DNA of 64,000 bases, taken from NCBI GenBank assembly GCA_965279375.1, contig OZ257156.1:2784001-2848000 (forward strand). Direction: 5' to 3'. Shown here in pieces: positions 33,130 through 40,509 of this stretch. Positions within the stretch are counted from its first letter, which is position 1. Every line of letters begins with the position of its first letter. The notes beneath the pieces are model-generated. The model was not told the origin of the DNA and ran no database searches. It saw only the letters and a program-made list of their open reading frames with translations. The position numbers and the translations under genes were made by a program. The DNA is from Gemmatimonas sp. GTDB taxonomy: Bacteria > Gemmatimonadota > Gemmatimonadetes > Gemmatimonadales > Gemmatimonadaceae.

Positions 33130-33202
33130 GCGGGAGTAGCTCAGTTGGTAGAGCGCTAGCCTTCCAAGCTTGATGTCGCGGGTTCGAGCCCCGTCTCCCG
33201 CT
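33130..33202 (+). tRNA. tRNA-Gly(TCC)
   Basis: Acceptor GCGGGAG/CTCCCGC, loop CTTCCAA, GGTTCGAG. Confidence 0.96.
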
Positions 33203-33218
33203 CTCGAATGCACAAATC

Positions 33219-33250
33219 AAAAGCCGGCCTCGTAAGTGGGGCCGGCTTTT
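33219..33250 (+). terminator. Intrinsic (likely bidirectional) terminator
   Basis: AAAAGCCGGCCTC-GTAAGT-GGGGCCGGCTTTT. Confidence 0.85.
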
Positions 33251-33323
33251 GCGTGTCGAGATCGAAGGCGGTTCCCGTCGCCAGCCCGCGGGACTCAAGG
33301 CTTCAGGCCCGGCCTCGCCGCGG

Positions 33324-33881
33324 TTACCGCTTCTCGCTGCGTAGCTCGCCGGGCGGATTCCTGCGCTTCATCATCGCTTCGTGCATCGCTGCCATCCCGC
33401 GATTCACCAGGTCGGTTACCTCGGCCGCATGAGCTTGCAGCAGCGCCACCGTCGCTGAGTCGGTGGATGTCTCCGTCAGTTCGACGCCCTTCTCGGTCAC
33501 GACCGTCTGGCGCACGATGCGAAGTCCATTGCTGAGCACGCCGTGCAGCGCCGGCGTGGACATCGGCAGGTTCGGGTCGACGCCCTTCGTCACGAACGCA
33601 CCAGTCGACGCCACGTGCTCCTTGATCTGCCGAGCCATCGCTGGATCGTCTGATTCGGTGACGGTGCGAATGCCGTCGGGCAGGTTCACGACGGTGCGTC
33701 GCAGTTTGTCGTGGTTCATGACCAGTTCGTGGACGACGCGCATGATGTCTGCCGACGTCGAGTCACCGCGTCCGCGCATCATCATCCCGCCGCCCATCAT
33801 GCCGCCCTGCGCGGAGAGCGGAGCCGCCCACGTCGCTGCGAAGAGGGAGGCTGCGAAGACTGCCTTTATTAGATGTCGCAT
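33324..33881 (-). CDS. Secreted Met/His-rich protein, possible metal (Cu) binding
   Basis: Signal peptide ending PLSA-Q, GGMMGGGMMM, HELVMNH, KEHV, QAHA, MAAMHEAMM. Confidence 0.7.
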   Translation of the reverse strand: MRHLIKAVFAASLFAATWAAPLSAQGGMMGGGMMMRGRGDSTSADIMRVVHELVMNHDKLRRTVVNLPDGIRTVTESDDPAMARQIKEHVASTGAFVTKGVDPNLPMSTPALHGVLSNGLRIVRQTVVTEKGVELTETSTDSATVALLQAHAAEVTDLVNRGMAAMHEAMMKRRNPPGELRSEKR

Positions 33882-34210
33882 GAGCAACTCGCTGATGAGG
33901 AGGGTCGGTCTGACACATCGGGACGACGCGTTGCATACGGCACGCGGCGGCACTTCGAATATCGCGCGCCCCGAACGTGCGAGTGTCAGGTATCCCCCCG
34001 GTCATTTGTGAGGGGTACATCCATTTATGTGCATATACGCAATAATGTATTGCACGCCGAGGCGCGGGAGCTCGGGTGCTCGGCAGATTGGGCATGTCAC
34101 GCACACGGTCACATCGCGAAGGCCATGGACCTGGGACCCCAGTCACGACAGCGCCCACCCGCGCTGATCTGCGGATGGGCGCGGCGCGGGCTGCTGCCGG
34201 CCTGCTGGCG

Positions 34211-35191
34211 CTAGAAGCGCACCGACACCGCGATCCCGGTGCCGCCGGTCCGTCCAACTGGAAGGATGGGCGACACGCTGGCGTCCGGCGCCGCGCGTCG
34301 CGGCTGACCGGCGGCCTCGCTCTCTCGCTTGGCCGCCAGATACTGCGACCGATGCATCAGCGACCGCGTGGATAGTGCGATGCCAAGACCGCCCACGGCC
34401 ACGCCGGCCGTCGCAATTCCGCGCACGACGTTGTTGTTGTCCCGGCCGGACACAAAACGCGCGTTGAAGGCACCCGCGAGTACGCCGGCTGAAATGCCGA
34501 TAATCGAACCGGCTCGACTGTGCCCATTCGCATTGCCCCACGCGTTCCACGTCGCAGTGCTCGCGGAGGCGAGCATCGAGAGCGGCGCGGCCAGCGCCAG
34601 CGCTGCCTCCTGCCGCTGTTGGGTGGGCGTCATCACGTACGGCACCTGGATGCGCGCGGCCTCTGCCAGCGAGAGTCCATGGTCGCTCAGCCACGCGGTG
34701 AACTCGGAGTCTCCCGCCAGCGCCGACACCCACACGTTGTTGTTCGTACGCGCCACGCGATCCACCAGCGCGCGATGTCCGGTGGATTCGAGCAGAAACG
34801 CCACCGCGCACAACGTGCCTGTCTTGCGATCCACGAAGTACGGCGTGGCCGCCTCCGCAAAATCGTAGTTGTGCGGGAAGACGCCACGCACATTGTAACC
34901 GGTCAGCGTGCGGACCAGTGCGGCGCGTGCCGCACGTTCCTCCACACTCAGCGACGAGAGATCGCGTGCGTCGAGTTCGGTGAGCACGCTGTCGAAGTGC
35001 GCATGGATGCGTGAACGTTCCGCCTGTTCTGCGGTGCGCTCGTACCACGTCGTCTTCTTCGCCAAAAGCGCGAGCGTGCCGCGCGAGGTCGTCTCCTCCG
35101 ACGTCGTCGACAGAATGCTGCTCGCGATCAACAGCGCGAGCGCGGACGCGAGCCCGGCAATGGCAACGGCGTTCCAACGATTGAGTAGCAT
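34211..35191 (-). CDS. Exported/membrane hypothetical protein
   Basis: GGAG SD; N-terminal signal/TM; FPHN...PYFVD...GTLCAVAFLL segment; C-terminal hydrophobic segments. Confidence 0.7.
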   Translation of the reverse strand: MLLNRWNAVAIAGLASALALLIASSILSTTSEETTSRGTLALLAKKTTWYERTAEQAERSRIHAHFDSVLTELDARDLSSLSVEERAARAALVRTLTGYNVRGVFPHNYDFAEAATPYFVDRKTGTLCAVAFLLESTGHRALVDRVARTNNNVWVSALAGDSEFTAWLSDHGLSLAEAARIQVPYVMTPTQQRQEAALALAAPLSMLASASTATWNAWGNANGHSRAGSIIGISAGVLAGAFNARFVSGRDNNNVVRGIATAGVAVGGLGIALSTRSLMHRSQYLAAKRESEAAGQPRRAAPDASVSPILPVGRTGGTGIAVSVRF

Positions 35192-35308
35192 GCGACTCTC
35201 CGTGGGTAGGTGACAGGAGCATCAGTGCACTCAGGGGCAACAGTGCGCATGAGACCACGGTCACACTACCCTGTCACCGGCCGCGCCGTCACCGAATGGT
35301 TCGGCCCG

Positions 35309-37084
35309 TCAGCGTTTCGGCTTGACGCCCGTGATCCCCCACTCGAGCCGGTCCAGCATCGCGTCCGAGACACCCTTCCGGAAATCCACCCACGTGAACT
35401 GGCGGAGGAACAGCGGCAACGCGGGGTTACCCGCGTCGGGAAGCAGCACGGGAATGACGGCCATCTTGCGGCGCACACACTCATCCAGACAGGCACGCAT
35501 CTCCGGCTCCTCCCATGGACCGATGCCATCAGGTCCGACAATCACGGCCGCCGTACGCGAATTGAGAATCGCCTGCTCGATCGCGGCTTGCCAGCGCTCA
35601 CCTGGGACGAGCTCCCATGCGTCGAGCCAGACGCGCACATTGCGGTCACGCAGCGCTTCCGCCAGTTCGATGACCGCGGGCTTATCCTGCGAGTTGTGCG
35701 ACAGAAACACGTCGAACGGTTCGGCCTTCGCCGCCGCTGTCTCGCTCGGCACCAACTCCGTCCTGGGCAGATGTACGCGCGCCTTTTGCAGGCGAGCACC
35801 GCCCGTGAGCGTAGCCGCAAGCAATCCCACCGCCAGCAGCGGATAGCTGGTGTCGATCCAGAGCAGCCCCACGCGCATCGCGACGGCGGCCGCGACCACA
35901 ATCGCGAGCGCGATCAGCGCCGCGCCAATCCAGAGCGCTCGCACCCCCGCGCCGCGCGCCTGGATCAGCGTCAGCAGATAGCAGATCAGAAAGACCACAC
36001 CCAGAGTCCAGCGAACGTCGACTCGGCGAATGACGAAATTCGACCGGAGTGCATGAGCCGCATAGGCGTGTATCATCACGCCCGATAGTGGGCCGTACGG
36101 CGTATCGAACACATCGCCTGCGCGACTCGAGCCGACGATCACGAAGCGGTCACGCAGGACGCGCACCTGTGCTGAATCGGGAACGCCGGCGATCGTCACC
36201 GGGGGCTTCCGCGGCCCGACGAACTGCGTCAACCCGACGTCCGGAAGCGACGTGCCGGGCGCGAGCAACGCCGCGATGCGATAGCTGAACGAGCGCATCG
36301 ACGCTTGCCCAAGGTGCGACGTGGGCACCATACGTACGCGCAGATCCGCTTCGCGCAGCCCCATCACCGTGCCCTGGCGTTCAATGCGAATGCACTGCGC
36401 CAGCTGGGGCGCGAGTTCGGCGCGACTCACCGCCGACTGCACGGTATCGAGGCCGTACCCGAGCACGACCGGCACTCCCGCTGCTTCGGCGCGCGCCGCC
36501 TGAAAGCAGAAGATGCGATCGATCGCTGACGGCGCCGTGAGCAGCAGGTCGAACGCGATCCCCTTCGCGCCGTTGTCGGCGGCCATTGCGATGAGGTTGG
36601 CCTCCGTCATGCGCGCGTCGTTCACGCTCTGACCACCGAACGAGGGCAGCGTGATGACCACGATGTCGCTGGCATCCGGCGCTTGCGGGGCAAATCGATA
36701 GTGCCAGTCCCCGAGTCGATTGAGACCGAGCACGTTGCTCGGCGTCTCGCCCTCGAACCCGTCGAGCGAAGTGCGCCTGCCTTCGAGTACGCGCGTTCCT
36801 GCTGCGAGAGCAAAGAGCACGCAGTACGCGACGAAGAATGGAAGGAAGCCGCCACCCAGAAGCACGCGGCGTTCGCGAACGAGCGGTGCGCCGAGTGCGA
36901 GGACCACCGCGAGGAGCGGGAGCAACACCACGGCGACGACGTACGGCCGATCGGAGAATGAACCGACCGCGCCGACGAGGAAGTACGCGCCGATGAGGAT
37001 CGGGATCGATGCGAGCAGGATCTGCACCTGTTCGCGTCGCAGCGCGCTTCGCGGGCCGCTCCGTGCTTCGCTGTCCAGTGCCAC
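35309..37084 (-). CDS. Membrane CHASE2 sensor fused to a C-terminal TIR domain
   Basis: 3 N-terminal TMs; CHASE2 motifs DIVVI, GAKGIAFD, VIVG, TPYG.LSGV.IHA; 3 TMs; TIR FDVFLSHNSQDK...WLD...WEEPEM...IPVLLP...WVDFR; start approximate. Confidence 0.85.
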   Translation of the reverse strand: MALDSEARSGPRSALRREQVQILLASIPILIGAYFLVGAVGSFSDRPYVVAVVLLPLLAVVLALGAPLVRERRVLLGGGFLPFFVAYCVLFALAAGTRVLEGRRTSLDGFEGETPSNVLGLNRLGDWHYRFAPQAPDASDIVVITLPSFGGQSVNDARMTEANLIAMAADNGAKGIAFDLLLTAPSAIDRIFCFQAARAEAAGVPVVLGYGLDTVQSAVSRAELAPQLAQCIRIERQGTVMGLREADLRVRMVPTSHLGQASMRSFSYRIAALLAPGTSLPDVGLTQFVGPRKPPVTIAGVPDSAQVRVLRDRFVIVGSSRAGDVFDTPYGPLSGVMIHAYAAHALRSNFVIRRVDVRWTLGVVFLICYLLTLIQARGAGVRALWIGAALIALAIVVAAAVAMRVGLLWIDTSYPLLAVGLLAATLTGGARLQKARVHLPRTELVPSETAAAKAEPFDVFLSHNSQDKPAVIELAEALRDRNVRVWLDAWELVPGERWQAAIEQAILNSRTAAVIVGPDGIGPWEEPEMRACLDECVRRKMAVIPVLLPDAGNPALPLFLRQFTWVDFRKGVSDAMLDRLEWGITGVKPKR

Positions 37085-37112
37085 CGCGAATCGACTCTGG
37101 TTCAGGTGTGAC

Positions 37113-38525
37113 TCACGGCGTGCGCGCGACGATCGCCTGCATCGCCGCCACTTCAGTCGCGGTGAGCTTGTGGTCCGTCGCGTTCTTCGCGATGGCGCGC
37201 TCGGCATTCGTCTTCTGCGAGGCCGCGCTGCGCGAGGCGTATGCGTTGGCCAGATCGAAGTGATCGCGCGAGGTGGCTGTACCAGCGCTCACGCGCGCCT
37301 CGAGCGCGCGAATCGTTTCGCTGACCACGGACACCGTGCCTGCGCTCATGCTCGCGGACCGCGCGCGGGTGCCCGAAACCGCCGTCGCGCTGGTGGTTGC
37401 TCTGGTAGTCGCGCTGGCCGCAGCGCTCGTCGATGCGCCAGCGCTGGCGGCAGTACTCGGCGATGACAGTGCCGCCGCGGCGGCAGCCGTAGCGCCACTC
37501 GCGGAGGCGCGCTCGGTCACGCTTCCGGCGGCCGTTGCGGAGATGCTTGCACCAGTCGAGGCGGGCTTGCGCGAGTAGACGCGGTCACGCAGCGTGGCGC
37601 TGGATTCGATGAGTGTCGGATCGATGCGATAGCTGCGCAGCGCCGAGTCGGTAGTGACGTTGGCGCGCTTGAGGTTGTAGGCAGCCTGCTCGTCGGACTT
37701 GATCTGGATCTGGCGTTTCGCGAGGTCCACGCGCTTTCGCGTGTCCGTGGGATTAGCCAGCATGTCGTACTGCAGCCGCTTCATCTCGGCGAACGTCGCG
37801 ACGGTGTCGATGTCAGGCTTCGCCGCGCGCGCCGCGTACACATCGAAACGAGCGTTGACCGTCGCAGCGGCGTCGAGCTCTCTCGTTCCAATGACCGTCC
37901 GTGCAGTGGTACCACGCGCCCAGGTCAGGCTGCGTCCCTGCGGCACGGCCTCACCGCTGCGGCGCACGTCCACCACACCTTCAAACACGGCAAGCTGACA
38001 GGCGATCAGCTCGCCCTCGCCGGTAACGTCGACCGAGTACTGCGTGCCTCGCGATGCGAGCGGCACGCCGCCGGCGGTGGTGACCGTCGGCATCTCGGCG
38101 ATGATGTCGCCGCGTCCCGACTTGATGTTCACGTGACAGATCGTGTCCACCGGCACATCGATCACGATCGTGAAGGGCGACTGCATGCGGTAGAGCGTGA
38201 TGCGTTGCCCGCCGCATTGCAGTTCCATCAGCGCCGCCGTTCCGGTCGCGGTGAGCTGATCGCCGGGGCTCAACGTCTGACCGGCGACGGCGTTCGTGTC
38301 GCGTGTGGCACCCAAGCGCCGCAACCGCACGCTGGCCGTGGCGGGGAGCAGCCGGGCGACGCGTGCGATGGCACTGGAGGGAAGTGGCGCCGGTTGCGTT
38401 GTCGCGGGCTGCGCCGAGGTGACGTTCGGCGCGACGGTCAGCGCGAGCACGGCGGTCAGCGCGCGCGCGCGACACGACAGTGTTCGCGTCCGACTGAACA
38501 GACGGTTTGCAATGAATGAGGACAT
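37113..38525 (-). CDS. Secreted FecR-domain protein with Ser/Ala linker and TPR-like C-terminus
   Basis: Signal peptide; LSPGDQL.T, RGTQYSVDV, VFEGVVDV (FecR hallmarks); terminal DHFDLANAY helix pair. Confidence 0.75.
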   Translation of the reverse strand: MSSFIANRLFSRTRTLSCRARALTAVLALTVAPNVTSAQPATTQPAPLPSSAIARVARLLPATASVRLRRLGATRDTNAVAGQTLSPGDQLTATGTAALMELQCGGQRITLYRMQSPFTIVIDVPVDTICHVNIKSGRGDIIAEMPTVTTAGGVPLASRGTQYSVDVTGEGELIACQLAVFEGVVDVRRSGEAVPQGRSLTWARGTTARTVIGTRELDAAATVNARFDVYAARAAKPDIDTVATFAEMKRLQYDMLANPTDTRKRVDLAKRQIQIKSDEQAAYNLKRANVTTDSALRSYRIDPTLIESSATLRDRVYSRKPASTGASISATAAGSVTERASASGATAAAAAALSSPSTAASAGASTSAAASATTRATTSATAVSGTRARSASMSAGTVSVVSETIRALEARVSAGTATSRDHFDLANAYASRSAASQKTNAERAIAKNATDHKLTATEVAAMQAIVARTP

Positions 38526-38693
38526 CACACTGCTCCGTGGTGCGGGGGCATTCCGCGTCGGGTGGGGGAACGCGCGGATGCTATGGGACTGCGCTGCGGA
38601 TCGTCACCCGATGCTGGCTGCGCAGACGTTACTCTCCGGGCACGAACGGCACGAGTGGCCCTCTGGATAGCGAGCAACTCCTTTCGGTGGCGC

Positions 38694-38722
38694 TTGTGTC
38701 GATACTCGAGCAGGACTAGCTT
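38694..38722 (+). promoter_or_regulatory. sigma70-type promoter for tRNA-Thr(GGT)
   Basis: TTGTGT-N17-TAGCTT, 33 nt upstream of the tRNA. Confidence 0.55.
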
Positions 38723-38755
38723 GCCCCTCTGCCCGAAAATCAACTCGGCGGTGCC

Positions 38756-38828
38756 GCACGCATAGCTCAGTCGGTAGAGCACATCCTTGGTAAGGATGAG
38801 GTCACCGGTTCGATCCCGGTTGCGTGCT
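38756..38828 (+). tRNA. tRNA-Thr(GGT)
   Basis: Acceptor GCACGCA/TGCGTGC, loop TTGGTAA, GGTTCGATCC. Confidence 0.96.
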
Positions 38829-38845
38829 TCTCAGTCTTTTGTGGT

Positions 38846-38884
38846 CGCAACCCCGTACCCACCCAGTGGATACGGGGTTTTGCG
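38846..38884 (+). terminator. Intrinsic terminator after tRNA-Thr
   Basis: AACCCCGTACCCAC-CCA-GTGGATACGGGGTTTT. Confidence 0.8.
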
Positions 38885-38931
38885 TTTCCGTCCTGATGGC
38901 GGGCGAGCGCCCGTCGGAGCGTTGTGATCTC

Positions 38932-40509
38932 GTGAGCCGTCCGTCGAGAAGTGCAGCGATCATCGGCGCCGGACCCAGTGGACTGGCGGCCGCGCGCTTT
39001 CTTCGCCGCGTCGGCTTCCGGGTGACGCTGTTCGACCGGTCGGACGGCGTTGGAGGCCAGTGGCGGGCGGACGCAGTCTCGAGTGGGATCTGGCCGGGGA
39101 TGCGCACCAACACGAGTCGCATCAACACCGCGTTCAGCGATCTGCCCCATTCATCGGATGCGGCGACGTATCCGACCGCCGAGGAGATGGGCGCGTATCT
39201 GGCGCGCTATGCCGCGCAGTTTGACCTGCTCGAGGGCGCGCGATTCCGGTCGACCGTCACTGAAGTCGAGCCGGAGGCCGGACAGTGGCGCGTGAGTTGG
39301 CGCGATACGACGGGGCACTCGCACGACGATCACTACTCGCACGTGGTCGTGGCGACCGGACGTCACCACCGACCGATCGTTCCGCCGGTGCCAGGACTCG
39401 ACGCGTTCACCGGGAGCGAGGGGGTGTCGCACGCCGCGAGCTATCGCGGCTCCGAGCGCTTCCGAGGCAAACGTGTGCTCGTCGCGGGGCACGGAATCAG
39501 CGCGCTCGAGATTGCGAGCGAGATCGCGATCGGCGGTGCCGCACGCGTCGTCATCGCGGCTCGCCGGCACCGGTATGTGCTGCCGCGACTGATCGACGGC
39601 GTGCCGATGGATCATCGCGTGTACACGCGGGCGGCCGGGCTGGCGTGGGAGACGCTACCCATTGAGCGGAGCAGTGCCGCGCTCAAGGAGCTCGTGCTCG
39701 CGAGCAGCGGCCATCCGTCGGCCTCGGGGGCGCCTGTGCATTCGGAGGACGTGCTCACGGCCGGTTTCACGCACTCTCCGCACTACCTCCGTCTTGTGGC
39801 GAGCGGCCAGATCGTACCGATGCCTTGGATGGGGCGGGTCGAGGGCGACACTGTGGTGATGCAGGACGGCCGCACCGAGGTGGTGGATGCGATCGTGTGC
39901 TGCACCGGGTATGCGCTGGATCTGCCGTTTCTTGGCCCGACGGTCCGGCGTGCGCTCGATCCGGACCTGCTCGACGCGGATCTCCATGAGCACACGTTCC
40001 ACCCCGATCTGCCGGGTTTTGCCTGCCTCGGGCTGTACGAGCAGGGAGGGCCGTATTTGCCGACGCTGGAGCTGCAGGCGCGGTGGGTGGCGTATGTGTG
40101 GGGCGGGGAGTGTGCGGCGCTGGCTGAGGCCGAGTTGGCGGAGGGGGTGCGTCAGGCGCGGGCGCGACGGGGCACAGGCCATGTGGAGCGGGCGCACCTG
40201 ATTGCGCGGCGGTTCGCACGGCTCGCGGGAGTGGAGCCGGCCCCTTGGCAGTGGCCGGATCTGGCGCGGGCGCTGTACTTCGGTCCGCTGTCGCCGGCGT
40301 CGTTCCGGTTGAGCGGCCCGGATGCGATGGCCGAGGCGCCGGCGCGGGTGGTGGCGGACGCGGCCGCGTTCGGATGTGTGGAGGGCGCGACGCTGAGCGC
40401 GGCCGAGTGGGCGCGGCTGCGAGAGTTGGCCGGGACGGGGCCGGAAACGGAAGCGAGCGCGGCGTTCGCGGGCTGGCTCGAGGGGCTCATGGCCGCCTTG
40501 CGTGCTTGA
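38932..40509 (+). CDS. Flavin-containing monooxygenase (FMO-like)
   Basis: IIGAGPSGL, GGQW, FTGSEGVSHAASY (FMO fingerprint-like), second Rossmann VAGHGISA, CTGY, ELQARW. Confidence 0.88.
   Translation: MSRPSRSAAIIGAGPSGLAAARFLRRVGFRVTLFDRSDGVGGQWRADAVSSGIWPGMRTNTSRINTAFSDLPHSSDAATYPTAEEMGAYLARYAAQFDLLEGARFRSTVTEVEPEAGQWRVSWRDTTGHSHDDHYSHVVVATGRHHRPIVPPVPGLDAFTGSEGVSHAASYRGSERFRGKRVLVAGHGISALEIASEIAIGGAARVVIAARRHRYVLPRLIDGVPMDHRVYTRAAGLAWETLPIERSSAALKELVLASSGHPSASGAPVHSEDVLTAGFTHSPHYLRLVASGQIVPMPWMGRVEGDTVVMQDGRTEVVDAIVCCTGYALDLPFLGPTVRRALDPDLLDADLHEHTFHPDLPGFACLGLYEQGGPYLPTLELQARWVAYVWGGECAALAEAELAEGVRQARARRGTGHVERAHLIARRFARLAGVEPAPWQWPDLARALYFGPLSPASFRLSGPDAMAEAPARVVADAAAFGCVEGATLSAAEWARLRELAGTGPETEASAAFAGWLEGLMAALRA

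Follow-up and report, generated by a model that had tools for sequence, protein, structure and literature searches.

A predicted CHASE2-TIR inner-membrane receptor and its secreted FecR-fold partner in Gemmatimonas sp.

CHASE2 receptors usually feed a cyclase, a histidine kinase, a GGDEF/EAL domain or a Ser/Thr kinase, and animal Toll-like and interleukin-1 (IL-1) receptors connect an outside sensor through a membrane span to an inside TIR. The TIRs of Thoeris, CBASS TIR-SAVED/TIR-STING, Pycsar TIR, Cat1 and SPARTA are activated by oligomerisation and carry out anti-phage NAD+ chemistry; to our knowledge, the known bacterial TIR systems, all of these included, respond to cytoplasmic cues. Here we analysed a 64,000-nucleotide (nt) stretch of Gemmatimonas sp. 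(contig OZ257156.1, positions 2,784,001 to 2,848,000; hereafter the window), which contains two adjacent genes: P0001, encoding a predicted membrane receptor with a CHASE2 ectodomain and a TIR output, and P0002, encoding a putative exported FecR-fold partner. Coordinates are positions within the window; L and G numbers label loci and genomes, respectively.

The sensor half of this pair is already known. FecR-domain genes precede CHASE2 histidine kinases in Burkholderiales and P. aeruginosa, in the LysM/FecR 'BiofilmReg' operon (PMC5192318), and the S. meliloti CHASE2 cyclase CyaK answers ribosomal protein uL2 via outer-membrane NsrA, with uL2-type activity also present in bacterial and yeast extracts (PMC7529298, PMC13001267). 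The new part is a putative immune-type TIR enzyme as the FecR/CHASE2 output. The CHASE2-TIR architecture is not described in the literature searched, with preprint supplements and most subscription papers outside coverage; the main text of a 2025 TIR-system survey contains neither 'CHASE' nor 'FecR', and its supplements could list the pair. The locus is best read as a FecR/CHASE2 sensor, of a kind that elsewhere drives kinases and cyclases, rewired to a putative TIR NADase.

Architecture of the receptor and its partner

The two genes are co-oriented on the minus strand, with P0002 (470 amino acids (aa); ATG start, GGAG 7 nt upstream) preceding P0001 (591 aa; GTG start) by 28 nt (Table 1). Pfam finds CHASE2 at residues 126–369 of P0001 (E 2.8e-16; 60.3 bits, cut-off 26.3), the sole CHASE2 match in its own genome, and TIR_2 at residues 459–574 (E 4.9e-26; 92.1 bits, cut-off 28). 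Hydropathy averaged over 92 relatives reveals six hydrophobic segments (22–40, 48–66, 75–93, 358–376, 384–402 and 408–430), while the loops behind transmembrane (TM) helices 2 and 4 and the stretch behind TM6 are rich in Lys/Arg; together, these features place CHASE2 outside and the TIR inside. By topology prediction, P0001 is an inner-membrane receptor with an extracytoplasmic CHASE2 and a cytoplasmic TIR. The helices of the AlphaFold2 model (mean predicted local distance difference test score (pLDDT) 90) coincide with the predicted TM segments. As is characteristic of CHASE2 receptors, the domain is predicted to lie outside the cytoplasm with three TM helices after it, and the C-terminal output is TIR_2, none of the described CHASE2 outputs. 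The CHASE2 protein of PMC3501461 is described with one N-terminal TM helix, whereas P0001 has three, i.e. two extra. An Atlas search with the receptor gave generic CHASE2 clusters only, whole-receptor fold searches were filled by TIR chains, and a search for longer ectodomain forms (757–2160 aa) found none, which is weak evidence on other outputs of this CHASE2 subfamily.

Judged from its fold match and from weak Pfam matches in its relatives, P0002 is a FecR-fold protein. P0002 itself has no family in Pfam, NCBIfam or PADLOC: it gives no Pfam FecR match at E ≤ 1, and its only Pfam match is TPR_20 (E 0.035). Weak Pfam FecR matches appear in 20/114 relatives at E ≤ 0.1 (best 9.2e-5), many of the relatives matching TPR families. 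The P0002 model (mean pLDDT 82) aligns by VIA with the FecR fold of two anti-sigma periplasmic domains, those of 4m0h (Z 14.5, root-mean-square deviation (r.m.s.d.) 3.0, 134 residues aligned) and of PupR 6ovm (Z 13.6, r.m.s.d. 2.8, 131 aligned), the next match having Z 8.8. Additionally, Foldseek matches the FecR fold (E 4e-4), the Atlas match is a FecR cluster (0.92, 153 shared features), and the P0002 family profile pulls out Pfam-positive FecR proteins; a PDB sequence search with this profile returned TPR proteins only. The original prediction, made from the DNA letters alone, had described a multi-TM CHASE2 protein with a complete TIR on the cytoplasmic side, which is borne out by the domain matches and by the hydropathy and charge profile, no periplasmic TIR being predicted. 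It had also placed a signal-peptide FecR/TPR-like gene about 28 nt upstream; the spacing, signal peptide, FecR fold and TPR-like helices stood, with no Pfam FecR match to the protein itself.

A hydrophobic N-terminus is present in 48/54 members of the P0002 family and 53/54 have no later TM, so P0002 appears to be a soluble exported protein, neither an anti-sigma factor nor a beta-barrel. Two candidate identities were rejected: a classical FecR anti-sigma factor, since P0002 has a signal peptide, no TM and no recurring extracytoplasmic function (ECF) sigma/TonB-transducer neighbours, and an NsrA-type outer-membrane barrel, since its C-terminus consists of helices with no beta-barrel. A barrel-like gene lies upstream of the pair in one locus only (L016). 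Within the FecR-fold domain, Cys104 and Cys130 are conserved and may form a disulfide. The C-terminal part of P0002 is absent from some relatives, and in one partner (L157:8235–9971 (+)) the helical domain is internally duplicated. Thr161 occurs in 114/114 relatives and the preceding Gly in 77/114, and in two FecR proteins that match Pfam FecR the stretch aligned with Gly160-Thr161 is RGTEY. Self-cleavage of E. coli FecR takes place at Gly181-Thr182 (PMC12036975), and Gly160-Thr161 is a candidate equivalent of this site.

The complex of CHASE2 (residues 95–360) with the partner (residues 45–322) was predicted by ESMFold2 alongside three controls. It scored 0.76, the best control reaching 0.01; the mark used for this score is reached by 116/157 solved complexes and by 2/215 mismatched pairs, counts that are only rough for the alignments used here. 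Contacts agree between runs to 83% or more, and the partner pLDDT does not fall below 87. Specifically, the predicted interface comprises residues 70–75, 87–88 (G88 being invariant), 121–126, 150 and 153 of the partner, and helices 159–170 and 187–195 of the receptor. The receptor profile matches 23 PDB sequences, none of them a chain named CHASE2, which makes recall of a solved complex less likely. The model supports binding of the partner to the CHASE2 ectodomain, as had been proposed for modelling.

Conservation and distribution of the pair

The CHASE2-TIR/FecR pair is rare, conserved, patchy and mobile, in soil and sediment bacteria. Among the best 120 of 490 matches to P0001, 116 of the 119 non-self proteins carry both CHASE2 and TIR_2, and scans of genome and metagenome contigs (best 80 kept in each) yielded at least 25 loci assigned to this receptor besides the window. 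Four loci ending at a contig edge upstream (L089, L092, L094 and L099) were left out of the linkage count. The partner, scored with a profile derived from protein matches and independent of the scored loci, lies immediately upstream on the same strand in 20 of the 21 assessable loci, across at least three phyla. The lone assessable locus without it, L017, has a receptor cut before residue 236 amid transposases. Both the combined architecture and the conserved linkage bear out the original prediction, and none of the refuting observations it had named turned up among those that could be checked here. In other loci, L021 stops before the TIR, and L013 and L020 have a frameshift in one gene. L017 is flanked by a 1.18-kb repeat as well as transposases, and looks like a decayed copy.

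The named hosts belong to Gemmatimonadota, which also hold the closest named homologues of P0001, to Acidobacteriota (Thermoanaerobaculia), and in one case to a Pseudomonadota metagenome-assembled genome (MAG; 33% identity). In the Acidobacteriota class of carrier G427, the partner profile matches 36/301 genomes. All three strong matches (3/3) lie upstream of this receptor; eight weak ones were examined, and the five scanned with Pfam are all FecR (5/5) and were read as generic FecR proteins. Two of the weak matches, at L252 and L253 in two genomes of this class, are FecR genes oriented divergently to a gene for a CHASE2 histidine kinase, which is accompanied by a sigma-54 response regulator. 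Searches of 40 relatives did not recover the full-length receptor, and those of 400 genomes from the phylum, with only four candidates per genome scored, recovered neither its ectodomain nor the partner. The 25 loci and the window share no further gene at a constant position.

The TIR domain and its proposed mechanism

The C-terminal domain of the P0001 model matches TIR structures (best Z 15.6), with MyD88, MAL and IL-1R-family TIRs, and also SARM1, as top matches. This domain, starting at F457 (position 35716), is the most conserved part of the receptor, with a mean pairwise identity of 68% versus 46% for CHASE2, 44–46% for the TM parts and 18% for the linker. The closest solved sequences are AbTir and BtTir (PDB 7uwg and 7uxr; E 1.6e-9 and 2e-7). 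In the alignment to AbTir, residues G495, E503, W524 and E528 correspond to G174, D182, W204 and E208, and all four are invariant in the 92 aligned proteins (92/92). The Glu of the WEEPE motif, which the original prediction had put at the usual catalytic position, is E528 (codon 35503–35501) and does align with AbTir E208. WxxxE is kept in 24/24 locus-encoded TIRs, including the copy from the Pseudomonadota MAG. Mutations in AbTir abolish activity (E208A), leave none or very little (G174A) or lower it (D182A); its W204 is required to make the cyclic product, and two TIRs together build the active site (10.1101/2022.05.07.491051). WxxxE and the BB-loop Gly on a TIR fold distinguish catalytic TIR NADases, and both are present in P0001; from its sequence, the P0001 TIR likely cleaves NAD+.

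In the mechanism that we regard as the most likely, with a confidence somewhat short of probable, the partner binds CHASE2, an outside cue clusters the receptor, and an NAD+-depleting TIR acts as its own effector. P0002 would be exported to the periplasm, as its signal peptide indicates, and would bind the CHASE2 ectodomain, as the complex model supports. A signal from outside the cytoplasm, most likely a protein or a sign of envelope damage, would act on the TPR part of the partner and alter its state by binding, cross-linking or release. This change may cluster receptors in the inner membrane, whereupon the TIRs would assemble head-to-tail, the form needed by TIR NADases, and, going by the motif, cleave NAD+. 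Depletion of NAD+ would lead to growth arrest or death, so that a stimulus outside the cytoplasm would set off a danger or immunity response. Since no conserved effector is encoded in cis, the TIR is most simply its own effector; Pfam and PADLOC scans of the neighbours found no adjacent Thoeris effector, in agreement with what had been predicted. For the cue, NsrA-CyaK/uL2 is the best precedent, and extending it to lysis sensing here is speculation. By analogy, the pair might perform Toll-like danger sensing in bacteria, where a secreted protein detects an extracytoplasmic sign of attack or of lysed neighbours and the TIR NADase fires ahead of, or in the absence of, any sign of infection in the cytoplasm, which we consider conceivable and rather unlikely.

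Several observations weigh against this mechanism. AbTir residues S176, R178, Y207 and K202 are also required for activity (10.1101/2022.05.07.491051), whereas the corresponding positions in the P0001 family are R/P497, Q499, P527 and a gap, so the motif by itself is no proof of catalysis. With the Trp invariant, a cyclic product becomes more likely, and such a product would fit a messenger better than bulk NAD+ depletion. The modelled interface is no more conserved than the domain (receptor 0.44 vs 0.58; partner 0.41–0.58 vs 0.43–0.51), and conservation therefore gives the binding no support. The defence-related context is weak: most neighbours of the pair are metabolic or signalling genes, and PADLOC matches lie near 5/22 receptor loci, one of them a generic TPR; with matches at 7/14 sister-clade TIR loci, several being generic ABC ATPases, this neighbour test does not discriminate. 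Finally, the ectodomain has no match in 72,556 plasmids, and 50,697 phages gave one weak TIR-only match.

Many other proteins share the TIR alone with the receptor, at about 50–70% identity. Among the 65 genome-derived TIR-only relatives we scanned 62, omitting three truncated ones: 16 carry FGE-sulfatase, 13 carry NACHT, NB-ARC or AAA (3 overlapping with FGE-sulfatase), 10 more carry long TPR arrays, and there are single Roco, VWA, SLH, pYEATS, CHAT and kinase fusions. TIR fusions of these types are discussed for conflict systems (PMC7159879), and such fusions are the probable donor pool of the receptor TIR. In a quick tree (137 columns; comparison set chosen by similarity to the query), the CHASE2-linked TIRs interleave with others, with 3 changes, which is compatible with a single origin; given how the set was chosen, we claim no donor and no order of events. 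WxxxE is present in 122/130 distinct TIR matches. In PADLOC and NCBIfam, the receptor is matched over its TIR region only. Together, the TIR clade and the patchy distribution, and not the neighbours, suggest a defence role. At L023–L088 and L100–L168, a highly conserved GPWxxxE TIR clade occurs on many architectures in Acidobacteriota, Planctomycetota and Methylococcaceae, and our search found no characterised member of it.

Of the four readings that we weighed, three assume an active enzyme. One of them, which is possible and more doubtful, holds that the TIR makes a cyclic ADP-ribose (cADPR)-isomer messenger for an unlinked reader, either as non-lethal signalling that replaces cyclic AMP (cAMP) or phosphotransfer, or as a split Thoeris-like system. 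W524 matches the Trp required for ADPR cyclisation, CHASE2 proteins generally end in a messenger-producing enzyme or a kinase, and signalling or metabolic genes surround most loci. Two of 22 loci, in which TPR-S proteins adjoin the pair, also fit a messenger. In L092, the gene 15 nt downstream of the receptor (L092:775–2112 (+)) encodes an N-terminal nucleoside-hydrolase/TIR-like domain plus MAP3K_TRAF_bd/TPR-S, an ASK1-like arrangement, and its product gives a PADLOC TIR effector match. In L098 (1930–17045), a possible conflict island, the pair stands amid TIR_2, uracil-DNA glycosylase-like, TPR-S-trypsin, RyR, NlpC/P60, calcineurin-like phosphoesterase and VWA genes, the TPR-S-trypsin, RyR and second TIR lying upstream. 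Against a messenger, no third gene is conserved. A search of this 99.95% complete genome gave no match to SIR2_2 or LSDAT_prok, both of which the control genomes did return, and none to ThsA_Macro, STALD, DUF4231 and DUF6650, for which the control genomes were blank as well. TPR-S is above cut-off in only 2/5 other carrier genomes, and the single match in this genome is of the CHAT-TPR type. Self-sufficiency, as given by a TIR acting as its own effector, would more easily explain a two-gene unit that travels by itself.

We consider it improbable that the TIR serves as the kind of scaffold seen in animal Toll-like receptors, nucleating TIR-TIR assemblies together with TIR-NLR, TIR-FGE or further TIR proteins of the cytoplasm, which would then carry out the response. 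The recurrence of the TIR clade, 55–70% identical, on many cytoplasmic proteins, the MyD88, MAL and IL-1R-family fold matches and the five other TIR proteins of this genome are what such a role would draw on. But none of these five (0/5) belongs to the receptor clade (≤58 bits vs 228), and G424 and G426 (MAGs, completeness unstated) have no TIR_2 match besides the receptor, three other carriers having 6–17, which weighs against an obligatory TIR-TIR adaptor; moreover, an invariant WxxxE is unnecessary for a scaffold. The five other TIRs sit at G000:C1 1275068–1276105, 1302293–1303156, 619056–620351, 44491–45636 and 3371263–3373293, and comprise one beside GmrSD/HEPN and HigB, a TIR-Mrr, a TIR-FGE-sulfatase, a TIR-ricin lectin and a 664-aa TIR protein. 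The least probable account is a guard or toxin-antitoxin logic, in which the partner restrains a constitutively toxic receptor and partner loss, cleavage or failed export (under envelope stress, blocked secretion or phage proteases) fires the TIR with no positive ligand; the tight linkage, the cut receptor of the only partner-less locus and the regulation of FecR-family domains via self-cleavage and degradation (PMC12036975), at a Gly-Thr site that looks conserved here, would suit it, but the known FecR plus CHASE2-kinase pairs and NsrA-CyaK act as, or are presented as, positive sensors.

Genomic setting and relation to known systems

Table 1 Features of the P0002-P0001 locus, in window coordinates.
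Feature	Position	Strand	Content or basis
Secreted partner gene P0002	37113..38525	-	Signal peptide, FecR-fold beta domain, helical/TPR-like domain, Ala/Ser/Thr linker, C-terminal TPR-like helices
Sec-type signal peptide, aa 1–38, end ...VTSA/Q, family consensus AxAQ	38412..38525	-	Predicted from sequence
FecR-fold beta domain, aa 54–226	37848..38366	-	Structure matches 4m0h, 6ovm
Gly160-Thr161, candidate FecR-type self-cleavage site	38043..38048	-	Suggested by conservation
Helical domain, aa 241–317; low-confidence linker, 321–394; TPR-like C-terminal helices, 395–468	37122..37805	-	Model
Receptor gene P0001, 3 TM - CHASE2 - 3 TM - linker - TIR	35309..37084	-	Pfam, hydropathy, model
Three N-terminal TM helices, aa 22–93	36806..37021	-	Hydropathy, model
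Extracytoplasmic CHASE2, aa 97–356 (Pfam match 126–369)	36017..36796	-	Pfam, topology
Three C-terminal TM helices, aa 358–430	35795..36013	-	Hydropathy, model
Cytoplasmic TIR, aa 457–591	35312..35716	-	Pfam, fold, topology
Insert between tRNA-Gly(TCC) and tRNA-Thr(GGT), 5552 nt	33204..38755		Pair and two other open reading frames (ORFs) inside

The pair lies in an insert that splits a Thr-Tyr-Gly-Thr tRNA cluster and is bracketed by tRNA-Gly(TCC) (33130–33203) and tRNA-Thr(GGT) (38756–38828), with a flavin monooxygenase gene between tRNA-Thr(GGT) and rpmG (38824–40509). A single contig spans 32918–41500 with zero differences in 4/4 runs; all come from one sample, possibly the source itself, and are hence non-independent. 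At 19 corresponding loci from relatives, the Gly-Thr spacer is 2–110 nt in 9 and about 1.3 kb in 2, no Thr(GGT) occurs within the fetched 1.5 kb in 6, and the contig ends in 2; this gap, which differs widely within the genus, indicates a variable slot. As no tRNA genes were found at 24 homologous loci scanned, the tRNA site is not specific to the module. No integrase and no att-like repeat was seen in the insert. An exact 17-nt direct repeat at 38745–38761, overlapping the start of tRNA-Thr(GGT), and at 39530–39546, inside the monooxygenase gene, is probably due to chance. The other insert ORFs (35191–34211 (-), 326 aa; 33953–33324 (-), 209 aa) have signal-peptide-like starts, and were treated as unlinked because they have no Pfam/NCBIfam family and no homologue beside other copies of the pair. 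The locus showed no promoter consensus and no useful terminator.

If P0001 works as proposed, a conserved TIR receptor of the inner membrane would bring NAD+-based immunity or signalling to the envelope, as a prokaryotic counterpart to the layout of Toll receptors assembled from different parts. With two genes, a modelled interface and, in NAD+ loss and growth arrest, a simple expected read-out, the pair is also a handle on what CHASE2 domains and FecR partners sense.

Among the described systems, 'BiofilmReg' (PMC5192318) is alike in having a signal-peptide FecR gene directly upstream and a CHASE2 followed by three TM helices, and two-gene versions exist. It differs in its output, PAS-HisKA-HATPase plus a response regulator as opposed to a TIR and no regulator, in its LysM-bearing partner, where P0002 has TPR-like helices, and in the single N-terminal TM of its receptor, where P0001 has three. 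The S. meliloti NsrA-CyaK/CyaD1/CyaD2 system likewise combines a CHASE2 inner-membrane receptor, a separate envelope protein and an enzymatic nucleotide output; however, NsrA is an outer-membrane beta-barrel and the output is cAMP acting via Clr, whereas here the partner is predicted to be soluble and barrel-less and the output is putative NAD+ cleavage (PMC7529298, PMC13001267). AbTir and BtTir share WxxxE and the BB-loop Gly with the P0001 TIR, but they are soluble coiled-coil-TIR proteins without a sensor domain, and several of their interface residues differ (10.1101/2022.05.07.491051). The TIR-NACHT/AP-ATPase-TPR, TIR-FGS and Roco conflict proteins belong to the same TIR clade, but their sensors are cytoplasmic, with no membrane receptor (PMC7159879). 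The pair differs from Thoeris, CBASS, Pycsar, Cat1 and SPARTA in that a ThsA-type effector, a cyclase and an Argonaute are all absent in cis, and in its predicted extracytoplasmic sensor.

The term 'Toll-like' in the original prediction suits the layout, and less so the parts, as the receptor has no leucine-rich-repeat ectodomain and its TIR is more likely enzymatic than adaptor-recruiting. Unlike animal Toll-like and IL-1 receptors, P0001 has neither a leucine-rich-repeat nor an immunoglobulin ectodomain, and it combines six TM segments with an NADase motif; the resemblance is one of analogy and not of receptor homology.

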